Shown piece by piece: positions 45,017 to 48,909 of a DNA stretch of 60,996 nt (its first letter is position 1; every line of letters starts with the position of its first letter). The notes beneath the pieces were generated by a model. It was not told the DNA's origin. It saw only the letters and a list, made by a program, of their open reading frames with translations, and ran no database searches. The position numbers and the translations under genes are program-made. Source of the stretch: Candidatus Omnitrophota bacterium (GTDB lineage Bacteria > Omnitrophota > Gorgyraeia > Gygaellales > Profunditerraquicolaceae); contig JAQTUD010000001.1 in assembly GCA_028710405.1 (NCBI GenBank), positions 1-60,996 on the forward strand, read 5' to 3'.

Positions 45017-45544
45017 CTATACTTTCTCCACTTGCCAATATTCCAGCTCTACCGGGGTGGCCCGGCCAAATATAGAAACGCTTACCTTGACCTTGCCCTT
45101 TTCAGGATGCAACTCCTCCACGGTACCGTTAAAATTCAGGAACGGGCCTTCCGTCACCCTGACCTGCTCGCCTTTCTCAAAGATTATCTTGGGGCTGGGC
45201 TTGGCCTGGGTCTCCTGCGTCCTCTTTAAGATGTTATCTACTTCGCCCTGCGGCAGAGGGACGGGTTTCTTGCCTAAACCGATAAAACCGGTCACCCCGG
45301 GAGTATTCTTTACAAAAAGATAGGTTTCTTCATTTAATTCCATCTCCACCAGAAGATAACCTGGGAAGAACTTTCTCTGCGAGATCTTTTTTTTACCGGA
45401 ACGCACCTCGGAGATCTGCTCCGTGGGGATGATCACCTTAGAAATCAATTCCTCCATATGCATAGAGGTAACCCTGTTACCCAGGGTCTTGCGAACTTTC
45501 TCCTCGGAACCCGTTTGTGCGTGGACTACATACCAGTTCTTCAT
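45017..45544 (-). CDS. nusG: transcription termination/antitermination factor NusG
   Basis: 175 aa. The N-terminal NGN domain starts MKNWYVVHAQTGSEEKV, and there is a C-terminal KOW domain. Confidence 0.96.
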   Translation of the reverse strand: MKNWYVVHAQTGSEEKVRKTLGNRVTSMHMEELISKVIIPTEQISEVRSGKKKISQRKFFPGYLLVEMELNEETYLFVKNTPGVTGFIGLGKKPVPLPQGEVDNILKRTQETQAKPSPKIIFEKGEQVRVTEGPFLNFNGTVEELHPEKGKVKVSVSIFGRATPVELEYWQVEKV

Positions 45545-45804
45545 TTAAACAATAGGCTCAATATCTTGGAAAGCGCCAAGTCCACCGCGCCGATAAAAAC
45601 GGCCACGATCAATGTAGATACTATAACCACAGCCGTAGAACCCATTAATTCCTTGCGCGTTGACCATGCGACCTTTCCTAATTCCTGCTTTACTTCAATA
45701 ATAAACGTCTTTATTTTCTGGTAATATTTGATAGCCGCGCCGATTAATATCGCGGCAGTAACAGCTAAAATGATATTCTTGATGTTATTTGCCAAAAACT
45801 CCAT
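45541..45804 (-). CDS. secE: preprotein translocase subunit SecE
   Basis: 87 aa. The C-terminal part has the conserved E.KKV.WP..-type motif (ELGKVAWSTRKEL) followed by a TM helix. Confidence 0.9.
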   Translation of the reverse strand: MEFLANNIKNIILAVTAAILIGAAIKYYQKIKTFIIEVKQELGKVAWSTRKELMGSTAVVIVSTLIVAVFIGAVDLALSKILSLLFK

Positions 45805-45844
45805 TCTTTGCCTCTTTTTTAGTCCAAGTCCTTTTTTAATTCTA

Positions 45845-45915
45845 CAGGAGCGGCAGGACTTGAACCTGCAGTCACGGTTTTGGAGACCGTTGGTTTGCCA
45901 TTAACCGACGCCCCT
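45845..45915 (-). tRNA. tRNA-Trp (anticodon CCA)
   Basis: Hand-folded cloverleaf. Acceptor AGGGGCG/CGCTCCT, anticodon loop CUCCAAA, T-loop TTCAAGT. No encoded CCA. Confidence 0.9.
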
Positions 45916-45926
45916 ATTACTATAGA

Positions 45927-46076
45927 CTATTTAATTTCTTTATGGGGGGTGTGTTTATGACAATACTTGCAAAACTTACCCAGTTCTAACCTGTCCTGGT
46001 GCTTTTTTTTATTCTTCTTAGTAGTATAATTCCTGTTTTTACAGACCGTGCATTCTAATGTAATGATTTCGCGCAT
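45927..46076 (-). CDS. rpmG: 50S ribosomal protein L33 (Cys4 zinc form)
   Basis: Not in the ORF track. Hand translation gives [49 protein letters not shown] followed by a stop. Confidence 0.92.
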
Positions 46077-46099
46077 ATGGCTTTGATTTCTTTAAACTA

Positions 46100-46172
46100 A
46101 GCTGGAGACGAGAATTGAACTCGTGACCCCGTCCTTACCAAGGACGTGCTCTGCCGACTGAGCTACTCCAGC
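46100..46172 (-). tRNA. tRNA-Thr (anticodon GGU)
   Basis: Hand-folded cloverleaf. Acceptor GCTGGAG/CTCCAGC, D-arm GCTC-AGTCGGCA-GAGC, anticodon loop UUGGUAA, T-loop TTCAATT. Confidence 0.9.
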
Positions 46173-46297
46173 AATTTTGGACTTGCCCGTCGACTAAATA
46201 AAAAAAAACACCCTAAGAATTTTTAGTAAAAATTCTTTTTTAAATCTTTTATGTCCCTAATATAAACTGATTATTCGGGATTTTTGCAGAGATAAGA

Positions 46298-46326
46298 AGT
46301 ATATATTAAAATTCCTGCTTTGTCAA
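46298..46326 (-). promoter_or_regulatory. sigma70-like promoter upstream of tRNA-Thr/rpmG/tRNA-Trp/secE
   Basis: Minus strand reads TTGACA (46326-46321), a 17-nt spacer, then TATACT (46303-46298). Confidence 0.5.
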
Positions 46327-46337
46327 TCTTTTTTTAC

Positions 46338-46380
46338 TGTAAAACAAGGGCCCGGTTCCGGTTAGGATAGCCGGGCCCTT
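46338..46380 (-). terminator. intrinsic terminator after the cold-shock gene
   Basis: Minus-strand RNA reads AAGGGCCCGG, a 15-nt loop, CCGGGCCCUU, then GUUUU. It starts 11 nt after the stop at 46392. Confidence 0.75.
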
Positions 46381-46391
46381 ACCTTCATCAA

Positions 46392-46592
46392 TTAGAGCTT
46401 TACAACTTTAGTAGCTTGTTCGCCTTTGGGACCTTTTTCAATCTCAAACTCTACTTCCTGTCCCTCATCTAAAGTCTTATATCCCTCACCCTGAATTGCG
46501 CTATGATGCACAAACACATCATTGCCAGACTCAGGAGTAATGAATCCGTAGCCTTTTTGATTGGAGAACCACTTTACTTTACCTTTTGCCAT
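46392..46592 (-). CDS. cold-shock domain protein (CspA family)
   Basis: Start trimmed to ATG 46592 ([18 protein letters not shown]...VFVHHSAI), which follows GGAAGGTGG. The RNP1/RNP2 motifs KGYGFI and VFVHHS are present. Confidence 0.93.
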
Positions 46593-46637
46593 TCTAATCC
46601 ACCTTCCTTTCTTGAAAAAATTGTAGCGTACTGCATA

Positions 46638-46677
46638 AACAAAAAACCGCAAGGCAGTCATCCCTCATGCCTTACGG
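46638..46677 (-). promoter_or_regulatory. terminator-like hairpin inside the csp 5' leader (candidate attenuator)
   Basis: Minus-strand RNA reads CCGUAAGGCA, an 11-nt loop, UGCCUUGCGG, then UUUUUUGUUU. The one non-Watson-Crick pair is G-U on the minus strand and C-A on the plus strand. Confidence 0.5.
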
Positions 46678-46714
46678 CTTTCGAGTACCACTTCCTTCAT
46701 TTACTACGTAAAGG

Positions 46715-46742
46715 AGTATACACTATTTTTCTGCCTTGTCAA
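46715..46742 (-). promoter_or_regulatory. sigma70-like promoter for the cold-shock gene
   Basis: Minus strand reads TTGACA (46742-46737), a 16-nt spacer, then TATACT (46720-46715). This implies a leader of about 115 nt. Confidence 0.5.
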
Positions 46743-46777
46743 GAAAATATTCCAATTCTTTCGCGTGTGTCTTGTCT

Positions 46778-46852
46778 GGGTTTCTCGGGAACGCTCGCCC
46801 CGCCCCAGCGTGGCGGGGCTTCGCTCGGTTCGGCTGCGTCGCTCTCCCGCAT
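46778..46852. repeat. left arm of an imperfect ~75-nt inverted repeat, containing hairpin GCCCCGCC-CCAGCGT-GGCGGGGC
   Basis: Homologous, in inverted orientation, to 47076-47152. The shared blocks are CGCT.G, CCCCAGCGTGG, CTTCGCTC and TCGCTCTC. The hairpin stem differs but stays complementary. Confidence 0.7.
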
Positions 46853-47011
46853 CCGGGCCCTAGATAAAATATTTTTTTAATTTAGGAGCCGGCTGCGGGA
46901 ACCTTGCCCGCTCCTTGCCTCCACGTCCCTCGAAATCCCAGCCAATCCATCCGCTAAGACTTCCAAAAGCCACAATCTTATTGAAACTATCCCATATCTT
47001 TTTGCGGGGGA

Positions 47012-47157
47012 CGGGCGGGTTTTGAGCGGCACGTAAGGAAGCCTGAGCGGGCATGGTTCGCCCTCTGTTTGCGAAGTCTGCGAGAGCGAGGGCTTCCGTC
47101 AGAGCGAAGATTTTCCACGCTGGGGAAAATCAAGCGGTGACGCGAAGAACCCGCCCG
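47012..47157. other. candidate structured RNA domain (multi-helix junction closed by a 10-bp stem)
   Basis: CGGGCGGGTT (47012-47021) pairs with AACCCGCCCG (47148-47157). Inside are GGAAGCC/GGCTTCC (47037-47043 with 47091-47097) and hairpin 47109-47131. Local GC is clearly above the flanking genes. There is no credible ORF. Confidence 0.35.
47076..47152. repeat. right arm of the inverted repeat, containing hairpin GATTTTCC-ACGCTGG-GGAAAATC
   Basis: This is the reverse-complement homologue of 46778-46852. The loop sequence is conserved and the stem has changed in a compensatory way (CCCCG/CGGGG versus ATTTT/AAAAT). Confidence 0.7.
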
Positions 47158-47173
47158 GCAACCGTAAAACCGA

Positions 47174-47959
47174 TTATGAGACGATATTTGAGAGATTGGC
47201 GAAATCTAGAAGGGAGAGTTTTTCCGGGCGGGTGTTCGGGTCTATCTTTTGGGCCTTAAAAAAATCATTGAGCCTATCCGCCGGGATCAACTCGGAGAGG
47301 CTGTTACGCAGGGTCTTTCTTCTCTGGCCAAAGGCGGCGCGGATGAGCTTAAAAAATAATTTTTCGTCCTTAGGGTTTACCGCCGGATGCGGCCTGACAA
47401 CAAGCTTTAACAAAGAAGAATCTACTTTTGGCACTGGAGAAAAAGAATTCTTTTTGATATCAAAGACTATTTCCGGTTCCAGATAATACTGCACAAAACA
47501 ACTAAACGCCCCGTATTCCTTGCCCCCGGGCGGAGAAACTACTCTCCGAGCGAACTCCTTCTGCACGGTAATAAAGATATCCTGGATCACCGCCCGATGT
47601 TCAATAAGATGCTCTAAAATGGGGCTGGAGATGTAATAAGGAATGTTTCCCACTACTCTTATTCTCTTACCCGCGAAATAACGCTTCAAGTCTAATTTTA
47701 ATATATCCTTATTTATTACCTCTATATTAAGGAAGGCTTTCAGATTATCTTTTAAGATAGGACAGAGTGAGCTGTCAATCTCCAGGGCATAGACCTGGCC
47801 GGCCTTCTCGGCGATTAAAACGGTAATTTCCCCTCTGCCGGCCCCTATCTCCAATACGGCATCTTTTCCATCCAGAGAAAGAGAATCAATGATCTTTGTC
47901 CGGATATTCTTATCAATAAGGAAATTTTGCCCTAGGCTTTTTTTAGGTTTAAGGCGCAT
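47174..47959 (-). CDS. rsmA: 16S rRNA (adenine1518/1519-N6)-dimethyltransferase
   Basis: 261 aa. Has KKSLGQNFL and the SAM motif VLEIGAGRGEIT. Confidence 0.93.
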   Translation of the reverse strand: MRLKPKKSLGQNFLIDKNIRTKIIDSLSLDGKDAVLEIGAGRGEITVLIAEKAGQVYALEIDSSLCPILKDNLKAFLNIEVINKDILKLDLKRYFAGKRIRVVGNIPYYISSPILEHLIEHRAVIQDIFITVQKEFARRVVSPPGGKEYGAFSCFVQYYLEPEIVFDIKKNSFSPVPKVDSSLLKLVVRPHPAVNPKDEKLFFKLIRAAFGQRRKTLRNSLSELIPADRLNDFFKAQKIDPNTRPEKLSLLDFANLSNIVS

Positions 47960-48909
47960 TTTACCGCTAACTTGATTGCTTCAATAAGAGAATTGGGATC
48001 GGCGCGGCGCGGCGTGGCAGCAATATCAAAAGCCGTGCCGTGCAAAGGCGAGGTTCTGACAAAGGGGAGCCCGACGGTGAGGTTTACAGAATGGTCAAAT
48101 CCCGATAATTTCAGGGGGATCAACGCCTGGTCATGATAAGGAGTTATTATACAGTCATATTCCCGCCTGTTTGCTTTATAAATAGCCGCATCAGCCGAAA
48201 GCGGGCCGTCAATATACAATTTAAATTTATCCCGCAATATTGCTAACGCCGGCTTAATCACCTCGTTCTCCTCACAACCTATGACCCCGTTATCTGAGGC
48301 ATGAGGGTTCAGGCCGCAAAATACTATCCGCGGATGCCCTATTTTAAACATCTCCCTTAAGGCGCGGTAGGCCATGAAGGCGTTGATAATTATCAAATCG
48401 TTACTGATACTGCCTGAGACTTTAGCCAAAGGGATATGGCGCGTAAGCAGGCTAAACTTAAGCCTCCTGTTTAAAAGCATCATAATGAAATCACTTGTAT
48501 CCGTACGGCTGGCCAGGTATTCAGTGTGGCCCAGAAAACCCTTAAGGCCGGCCAGATTTACCGCCTCTTTAGATATAGGGCAGGTCACCAGGCAATCTAT
48601 CTGTTTTTCGGTAATCAATTCCAGGGCTTTATCCAGATATTCAACAGAGGCCTTACCGTATTCCGCCCTGATCTGCCCGAAAGAAAAACTATCCTGTGAT
48701 ACGTTATTTAGACCTACAAACCTCTTACTCGATCCTAGATGCTGGATACTCGATACCTTATCCAATACCCCTTTATCTCCGATAACCACGAATTCAGCAA
48801 ACCCCTTTAATTTCTTGAGCGCTTTCAAGGTAATCGCCGGGCCGATACCGCTGGGATCGCCTATAGTAATACCAACCTTAATCTTGGATGATCTTGATAT
48901 AGGATTCAT
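47932..48909 (-). CDS. pdxA: 4-hydroxythreonine-4-phosphate dehydrogenase
   Basis: 325 aa. Has ITIGDPSGIGP, GHTE and LNPHA..NG contexts. Sits in the classic surA-pdxA-rsmA order. Confidence 0.9.
   Translation of the reverse strand: MNPISRSSKIKVGITIGDPSGIGPAITLKALKKLKGFAEFVVIGDKGVLDKVSSIQHLGSSKRFVGLNNVSQDSFSFGQIRAEYGKASVEYLDKALELITEKQIDCLVTCPISKEAVNLAGLKGFLGHTEYLASRTDTSDFIMMLLNRRLKFSLLTRHIPLAKVSGSISNDLIIINAFMAYRALREMFKIGHPRIVFCGLNPHASDNGVIGCEENEVIKPALAILRDKFKLYIDGPLSADAAIYKANRREYDCIITPYHDQALIPLKLSGFDHSVNLTVGLPFVRTSPLHGTAFDIAATPRRADPNSLIEAIKLAVKCALNLKKA

Follow-up and report, generated by a model that had tools for sequence, protein, structure and literature searches.

Repetitive extragenic palindromic (REP) sequences and their doublets, the bacterial interspersed mosaic elements (BIME) and REPINs, are mobilised by RAYT proteins (TnpA-REP), which are Y1 HUH transposases (PMC3116915, PMC8266576, PMC3733652), and a conserved GTAG or CGTC head stands beside the REP stem (PMC3733652). 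Longer interspersed intergenic repeats of 125-160 nt, stably folding and with some compensatory changes, have been described as bcr1 in the Bacillus cereus group and as ERIC/IRU in enterobacteria (PMC3184786). Here we analyse a stretch of 60,996 nt from a Candidatus Omnitrophota bacterium (assembly GCA_028710405.1, contig JAQTUD010000001.1, positions 1 to 60,996; hereafter the window) in which a GC-rich gap between the 16S rRNA dimethyltransferase gene rsmA and a csp paralogue contains two inverted units, 39 nt apart, of a structured repeat: unit A, of a long subtype, and unit B, of a short one. On balance, and with some reserve, we regard the gap as probably a doublet of an undescribed, non-autonomous mobile repeat that depends on its structure.

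The element resembles REP and REPIN sequences in being extragenic, multi-copy and GC-rich, in folding as a single strand, in occurring singly or as an inverted doublet with a short spacer, in leaving no target-site duplication, in keeping its structure over its stem sequence and in its long persistence. It differs in that a REP is an imperfect palindrome of 20-40 nt, whereas the present unit comprises 165-200 nt, five helices and a three-way junction, and in that its family spans several phyla. A RAYT gene is flanked by its own repeats, but no Y1 gene lies near a unit; and in place of the co-occurrence of repeat and RAYT, Y1 genes are equally common without the element and are missing in 8 of 20 genomes that bear it. 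On the strand on which our covariance model, R1, was built (the one opposite to the folded strand, and + for unit A), a GTAGCG head is seen in a minority of copies (contigs C6, C111, C61 and C107, loci L049 and L072), most having TTAGCG, TTTGCG or TTCGCG.

The Rickettsia palindromic elements (RPE), reportedly described by Ogata et al. in 2000, are said to be structured repeats of ~100-150 nt or more that lie both between genes and in frame within genes, and we know of no transposase for them. In-frame genic copies with an intact host protein are common to both. However, a large fraction of RPE is reportedly genic, against 2 of 139 copies here, the two share no sequence similarity, and our element is far wider taxonomically with much stronger covariation. 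As with bcr1 and ERIC/IRU, copy number varies between relatives, but those repeats are single imperfect palindromes of one genus or family, bcr1 with a target-site duplication, whereas the present element has a multi-helix junction, invariant loops, no duplication and a multi-phylum range. Its ends pair (stem P1) as do those of a classical miniature inverted-repeat transposable element derived from a DDE transposon, but neither a duplication nor an autonomous relative was found. With the msr-msd non-coding RNA (ncRNA) of retrons it has in common ends that pair in a closing stem, a conserved hairpin with a variable long arm, and a length of ~170 nt. To our knowledge retron RNAs are single-copy and always beside their reverse transcriptase; in contrast, 13 of the 20 element-bearing genomes have no reverse transcriptase, and the order of the arms on the folded strand is reversed. 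Palindrome-associated transposable elements (PATEs, the ends of IS200/IS605 elements without an open reading frame, ORF) and the omega/HEARO RNAs are likewise structured, multi-copy, strand-specific and free of target-site duplications, but TnpB is present in 1 of the 20 bearing genomes, no Rfam HEARO or IS605 motif was matched, and the variable parts of our element are paired stems rather than unpaired guide segments.

A preliminary description of the window, made from the letters alone, had picked out the gap as GC-rich and without a credible ORF, which the GC profile and the ORF list confirm: between the stop side of rsmA and the csp promoter, GC is 0.52-0.57 (46700-47199) compared with 0.32-0.43 on the csp side and 0.37-0.46 within rsmA, the longest ORF wholly inside the gap has at most 64 aa, and one of 68 aa (47053-47259, +) extends out into rsmA. 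It had also reported two inverted homologous segments of ~75 nt. The homology is real, and the blocks CGCT.G, CCCCAGCGTGG, CTTCGCTC and TCGCTCTC are identical when 46765-46865 (+) is aligned with the reverse complement of 47063-47165; its extent was drawn too small, as the whole units measure 170 and 200 nt. The search for further copies that it had proposed was productive. In the 1.16-Mb assembly (123 contigs, the window being contig C1), R1 (169 positions, 37 pairs) and nhmmer found 21 full-length units on 15 contigs, with E-values, to be taken as rough, of 4e-42 to 4e-26, and many more in relatives; BLAST and nhmmer place the homology over the whole 165-200 nt. It is these 21 full-length units that exclude a chance resemblance, and not the window alone, in which the 11-mer CCCCAGCGTGG is by itself not significant (2 found, 0.79 expected).

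Three structural options had been left open. Two diverged, inverted copies of one small structured element proved to be the correct one. The terminal inverted repeats of a single transposon do not describe the locus, as each unit is self-contained with its own ends paired and 11 of the 21 units in the genome are solitary; nor are the arms of one large fold needed, as the units fold alone at -85 and -94 kcal/mol (z -4.7 and -5.2). No Rfam match explains the region: a cmscan of 45500-48000 against Rfam 15 (E at most 10) gave within the gap (46740-47180) only a spurious match to a mammalian long non-coding RNA, and elsewhere tRNAs, further spurious matches and a sub-threshold cspA thermoregulator match covering the csp gene itself. 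No relative has an intact protein-coding gene at the site. A protein-coding remnant was rejected on the grounds that no ORF is notable, that the repeats account for the region and that the relatives are geneless there.

Within this genome the doublet of an A-type unit and a partner is found at five loci (the window and contigs C111, C107, C61 and C83), the remaining 11 units being solitary. Unit A has five closely similar copies (C83, C111, C61, C107, C64) and unit B a sister copy at C111:12466-12638, and subfamilies are near-identical within one genome. The C107 and C111 doublets contain a portion of this spacer, TATTGAAACTATCCCATAT, so that three of the five doublets share it; the spacers on C83 and C61 are of 16 and 7 nt; by analogy with REPINs, the doublet itself may be the copied unit. 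Decay is also evident. The copy at C45:6633-6801 is chimeric, with a P1 that is unable to pair, the C88 copy has a 50-nt insertion, and C90:2596-2644 is a fragment of 49 nt. Unit A has four uncompensated mismatches in P1 relative to its C83 sister, in which all 18 of 18 P1 pairs are Watson-Crick; these are three T.C positions and one G.T position, that is, G.A and A.C on the folded strand, and the P1 columns covary. Several units are stop-free in more than one frame and give rise to spurious ORFs and false 5' gene extensions, as where the start of cysS is called into the repeat (C45 6736-8238, C64 3094-3660, C90 2732-3112, and 46503-46880 in the window).

In each unit both ends are joined in a terminal stem, P1, which has up to 18 bp; P2 follows, and then a three-way junction bearing P3 (8 bp with an invariant 7-nt loop) and a P5-P6 arm of variable length, in total five helices (P1, P2, P3, P5, P6). 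The P3 hairpins had been noticed at the outset as 8-bp stems, fully exchanged yet complementary, under a common loop; both units bear this out, and at least six different P3 stems occur beneath the identical loop in this genome. P5 likewise varies in sequence by subtype with its pairing kept, for example GGACCC/GGGTCC and GTGTTTATG/CATAAAC, and the extended P6 arm appears in alignments as a block insertion. The suggestion of selection on structure was borne out by covariation. Among 20 units from the present genome, 82.7% of cells are paired, compared with 34-46% with slid partners, and 155 cells are double-changed compared with 27-58; among 40 copies from across phyla 90.1% pair, compared with 32-50%, with double changes in 35 of the 37 pairs and 488 double-changed cells compared with 113-144, these counts being somewhat inflated towards the model, to which alignments A3-A5 were fitted. 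For P3, pairing holds in 95.5% of the own-genome cells and in 97.7% across phyla, with double changes in six or seven of its 8 pairs. None of 500 shuffles matched the observed percentage paired, the double-changed count or the covariation score, and the slid controls were two to four times lower.

R1 was initially built on the pyrimidine-rich strand, and the choice of this strand as the folded one was overturned by asymmetries of mismatch and energy. In 179 pooled copies (6229 paired cells) the model strand has T.C 316 times against G.A 25 times and A.C 155 times against G.T 104 times, which on the purine-rich strand reads as G.A 316 against U.C 25 and G.U 155 against A.C 104. Furthermore, the reverse complement of the model strand folds better in 173 of 175 copies, with a mean gain of 11 kcal/mol. 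Because this mismatch spectrum fits a folded single strand and the folding energy is lower, we infer that the purine-rich strand is the one that folds (minus for A, plus for B). The asymmetry shows that what selection maintains is a single strand, be it RNA or single-stranded DNA, rather than a cruciform in the duplex. Conserved words on the folded strand are GAGCG (four per unit), GAGCGGGCANGGUUC and the loop ACGCUGG. GA dinucleotides stand opposed beside P2, P3 and P5 and, judged from their sequence, can form tandem G.A pairs. The coordinates of these parts in the window are given in Table 1.

Table 1. Parts of the two repeat units and the features that border them, in window coordinates
Feature	Position	Strand	Details
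csp promoter, TTGACA-16-TATACT	46715..46742	-	11/12 consensus positions; 18 nt from unit A end
Unit A, long subtype with extended P6 arm	46760..46959	- (probable folded, purine-rich strand)	R1 153.4 bits, E 1.3e-36; minus strand folding energy -94.1 kcal/mol, z -5.17
Unit A terminal stem P1, first arm GCGTGTGTCTTGTCTGGG	46763..46780		pairs with 46937-46954 CCCAGCCAATCCATCCGC
Unit A hairpin P3, stem GCCCCGCC/GGCGGGGC	46797..46819		loop CCAGCGT on + (ACGCTGG on folded strand); left hairpin of the preliminary description
Unit A extended P6 arm, AT-rich tip	46846..46899		long subtype only; inverted repeat I2, 25-nt arms, 80% complementary
Unit A conserved junction word GAACCTTGCCCGCTC (GAGCGGGCAAGGTTC on folded strand)	46899..46913		nearly invariant in 179 copies, many phyla
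Inter-unit spacer, 39 nt	46960..46998		facing ends are the 5' ends of the probable folded strands
Unit B, short subtype, inverted relative to A	46999..47168	+ (probable folded strand)	R1 139.3 bits, E 5.3e-33; plus strand folding energy -84.9 kcal/mol, z -4.74
Unit B P1 core CGGGCGGGTT	47012..47021		pairs with 47148-47157 AACCCGCCCG; ten perfect pairs, in inverted repeat I1 and in the predicted fold
Unit B stem P5, GGAAGCC	47037..47043		pairs with 47090-47096 GGCTTCC in the predicted fold; encloses P6 hairpin and GAGCG junction words
Unit B hairpin P3, stem GATTTTCC/GGAAAATC	47109..47131		loop ACGCTGG; right hairpin of the preliminary description
rsmA (ksgA-type 16S rRNA dimethyltransferase)	47174..47959	-	ORF; stop codon 5 nt from unit B end

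The placement of the copies, read from simple ORF calls, is non-orthologous and largely intergenic. All but two of 139 covariance-model hits checked for a spanning ORF lie between genes. The 3' end of the folded strand is close to a neighbour, a median of 19 nt past its stop codon (150 hits tallied), and on the opposite, 5' side there is a spacer of 200-270 nt; these 5'-side spacers share structured modules among copies (216 similar flank pairs, compared with 13 on the tight side). No unit was found within 1.5 kb of rsmA in any of 29 same-family relatives, and no flanking protein family recurred in more than 4 of ~50 genomes (434 flanking ORFs). The two genic copies are in tgt of genome G183 (L053 1501-1662), where positions 1-165 and 166-355 of the Pfam TGT profile match on either side of the unit, and in folC of genome G128 (L061 1501-1668), where it falls between the Mur_ligase_M and Mur_ligase_C domains. 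Both inserts are in frame and stop-free, with host domains collinear on both sides, and the tgt and folC orthologues in the genome of the window have no insert. Each copy lengthens its host protein by ~50 residues at a domain boundary; the element is read in a different frame in the two cases, and in both the mRNA carries the weakly folding strand. A frame-breaking genic copy was not found among the 139 hits. A search of host proteins with the element-encoded peptide returned only the query itself, the 48-aa region being too short for that database. A self-splicing or processed intron was considered and rejected, as no gene is split out of frame among the 139 copies.

In several genera (L042, L072, L024, L184, L041, L043) a second conserved structured module of ~200 nt, containing words such as GCAUUAGAAAAUUUU and GGUUUACUCG, adjoins the unit; the repeat is thus built of modules, with further families or domains travelling alongside. 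Units adjoin cysS in three genomes of different genera and families, namely this one (L003, L019), G326 (L047) and G012 (L129); either units prefer to land there or an old copy has been kept.

The family is widely distributed. R1 was positive in 176 of 401 genomes of the phylum Omnitrophota, covering 130 of 282 genera, and the remaining 225 genomes were without the element, such absences being soft as metagenome-assembled genomes (MAGs) are incomplete. Copies numbered 1-25 per genome in the 24 phylum genomes searched in full and reached at least 59 elsewhere. With one genome per species, an exact core pattern matched at least 120 stretches in MAGs labelled Omnitrophota, Parcubacteria, Uhrbacteria, Wolfebacteria, Liptonbacteria, Portnoybacteria, Saccharibacteria, Aminicenantes, Margulisiibacteriota, Bipolaricaulota, Firestonebacteria and others, and R1 confirmed full-length units in such MAGs. 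CP070825.1, a closed Aminicenantes chromosome, holds at least 15 units; counts in other Aminicenantes MAGs are at least 31 and at least 59, and a Parcubacteria MAG of 0.8 Mb has 15. MAGs labelled Patescibacteria, Bipolaricaulota and others are likewise multi-copy holders. Multi-copy sets spread over many contigs, together with a closed chromosome, mean that contamination of bins cannot explain the spread. We found no account of such an element in Omnitrophota in the literature; the survey of the phylum annotated Rfam motifs only (PMC10066038), and a 2026 ribozyme-discovery preprint makes no mention of these taxa.

The most economical explanation for these data is, we think, that the fold is the thing that propagates. 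We propose that each unit of 170-200 nt folds as a single strand in which the P1-P2 rod joins the two ends, and that an enzyme acting in trans would recognise this fold with its invariant loops and junction, rather than the stem sequences, and so copy or move the element as a single strand. Only copies that keep the fold would then leave descendants and those that lose it would stop spreading, the copies being mainly selfish; on this proposal, stems covary, loops stay fixed over phyla and copies undergo birth and death because it is the fold that is propagated. New copies would land between genes, typically a few bases past a stop codon, and occasionally in frame within a gene. In the present lineage two units of different subtypes and a csp paralogue cassette would have come to sit directly after the rsmA stop codon, a place that in relatives is taken up by just ~200 nt and tRNA-Thr.

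A number of observations weigh against this proposal. Neither a direct repeat nor a target-site duplication, which the preliminary description had asked to be checked, is visible at any of the 21 genome copies or at the two genic copies. No autonomous version was found, and unit pairs spaced 1.1-7 kb apart share no ORF. The Y1 transposase (PF01797) is present in 18 of 20 element-rich and in 17 of 20 element-free relatives, and none of ~45 Y1 genes in 16 element-rich genomes is near the listed units. Across 20 element-bearing genomes of several phyla, Y1 was detected in 12, reverse transcriptase (PF00078) in 7 and TnpB in 1. Of 99 cases with co-directional flanking genes, 68 have the folded strand antisense to them and 31 have it sense, a bias that seems at odds with a simple lagging-strand-template model of IS200/IS605-type elements. 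The exact core pattern had 0 matches in IMG/VR viral contigs, no transfer vector is known, and the taxon labels of the MAGs are the submitters' own. To these can be added the fitting of the alignments to the model mentioned above, and the invariance of loop and junction words over several phyla, which would also fit a functional RNA.

That the copies are dispersed genes for a trans-acting structured RNA, either a ribonucleoprotein subunit or a ribozyme, with the purine-rich strand transcribed and the window holding two divergent genes, is unlikely in our view but deserves serious weight. The very strong covariation and the loops and junction words kept across phyla are what it would lead one to expect, and the strand asymmetries (G.U over A.C, G.A far over U.C, G over C) are typical of functional RNAs, which the purine-rich folded strand would fit as well. 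A three-way-junction architecture with tandem G.A pairs can be read from the sequence, the 200-270-nt 5'-side spacers and their shared modules could hold promoters, and some genomes, the near-complete G155, G143 and G149 among them, have only one to three copies. However, a promoter or terminator conserved at the units was not found, no U-tract follows P1, and several units here fill an entire intergenic gap or abut each other at 7-39 nt. Copy number ranges from 0 to at least 59 between relatives, with the element absent from more than half of the phylum genomes (225 of 401), and decayed, chimeric and fragmentary copies, copies within protein-coding genes and the lack of a conserved neighbour gene also speak against it. 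A related idea, which we consider rather unlikely, is that the unit represents a new functional fold class spread across several uncultivated phyla (Omnitrophota, Patescibacteria, Aminicenantes, Bipolaricaulota and others), a catalytic or protein-recruiting RNA or single-stranded DNA that, with its ends joined by the rod, would direct its own excision, copying or integration without a dedicated transposase or with an unrecognised one.

Very unlikely, we believe, is a SINE-like retroelement (SINE, short interspersed element) derived from a retron-type or other reverse transcriptase-associated ncRNA, with P1 as the a1/a2 closing stem and copying in trans by a retron-like reverse transcriptase. 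A closing stem formed from both ends, a single conserved hairpin and a long arm that varies would suit it, as would the unit of the Parcubacteria-labelled genome G432 (L294, 1447-1611), which lies upstream of a 339-aa retron-type reverse transcriptase (1926-2945), in the same orientation and at a distance of 315 nt. Yet PF00078 is found in 7 of the 20 element-bearing genomes and is absent from the closed Aminicenantes chromosome with its 15 or more units and from the present genome with 21; no unit is near any of four further reverse transcriptase loci; and one adjacency among eight reverse transcriptase genes is, by our estimate, within chance at 15 copies per 0.8 Mb. In retron ncRNA msr precedes msd, the reverse of the arm order on the probable folded strand. 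Least credible of all is a cis element of the local genes, either one that regulates csp or one that acts between surA-pdxA-rsmA and csp as a terminator, insulator or stabiliser of mRNA ends. Unit B does start 5 nt past the rsmA stop codon, 18 nt separate the end of unit A from the csp -35 box, one unit end lies a median of 19 nt after a stop codon across genomes, and REP-type repeats do stabilise mRNA 3' ends (PMC3184786, PMC3733652). On the other side, units flank unrelated genes in both orientations, the rsmA loci of relatives do without one, no U-tract is present, the single weak terminator-like site is inside unit B, and the stably folding strand is antisense to its neighbours two times in three. 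That the doublet serves only to regulate rsmA or csp locally is unlikely; a side effect of the doublet on the locus, such as pausing or insulation, is possible and would not explain the family.

Candidates for the mobilising machinery were rejected one after another on the counts given above: Y1/RAYT for its lack of co-occurrence with and adjacency to units, TnpB for its presence in 1 of 20 element-bearing genomes, and reverse transcriptase for its presence in 7 of 20 with a single adjacency. None of the three was detected in the present genome, no reverse transcriptase was detected on the closed Aminicenantes chromosome, and six Y1 loci scanned with R1 with filters off yielded no unit. An autonomous element between widely spaced unit pairs was also rejected, as the enclosed genes are ordinary and unrelated (cysS on C45, unrelated genes in G048). 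At one locus of genome G157 (L173) a Y1 gene is flanked by perfect 45-nt hairpin copies (1376-1420 and 1954-1996; TTGGGGACGGTTCTGGG...CCCAGAACCGTCCCCAA); here the phylum shows REP-RAYT in its classical form, with no relation to the three-way-junction element. Fragments containing GTCCCC also adjoin units on C45, C90 and C64 of the present genome. The G432 reverse transcriptase matched PADLOC RT_X and RT_outgroup at ~1e-39 and NCBIfam retron_St85_RT at 4e-36, the latter below its cut-off, and the 315 nt between it and the unit are strongly structured (z -6.7 for the whole 501 nt).

Of the structured elements that no catalogue lists, this is one of the most widespread and one of those with the best covariation, and its hosts belong to several uncultured phyla, often with tiny genomes. 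If it is selfish DNA, the idea taken from REP and REPIN sequences, that the fold is the identity of the replicator, would extend to a far more complex fold and imply an unknown mobilising activity that crosses phyla; should it be a functional RNA, it would represent a new class. In either case it accounts for many of the GC-rich 'orphan' spacers that these genomes have, gives rise to spurious ORFs and gene extensions, breaks assemblies and can add 50-aa inserts to housekeeping enzymes.

With regard to the host locus, rsmA belongs to a surA-pdxA-rsmA operon and has orthologues of 43-63% identity in 39 of 40 relatives. In relatives with the neighbours in view, pdxA-rsmA is followed by rpmG a few hundred nt further on. 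The distance from rsmA to tRNA-Thr is 1001 nt here, compared with 179-359 nt in the loci of eight relatives scanned for tRNAs, and the extra ~780 nt are made up of the doublet and the csp cassette. This cassette (46392-46745), which adjoins the doublet, consists of a csp paralogue that has a strong promoter and a terminator of its own; the encoded protein is 83% identical to that of a second csp gene at C37:6666-6863, and no csp gene was found between rsmA and tRNA-Thr in any of 29 same-family relatives (loci L079-L107). Cassette and doublet may have arrived together. Between tRNA-Thr and the terminator of csp there is a second near-consensus promoter, TTGACA-17-TATACT (46298-46326, -), which probably served the tRNA-Thr-rpmG-tRNA-Trp-secE-nusG cluster ancestrally.

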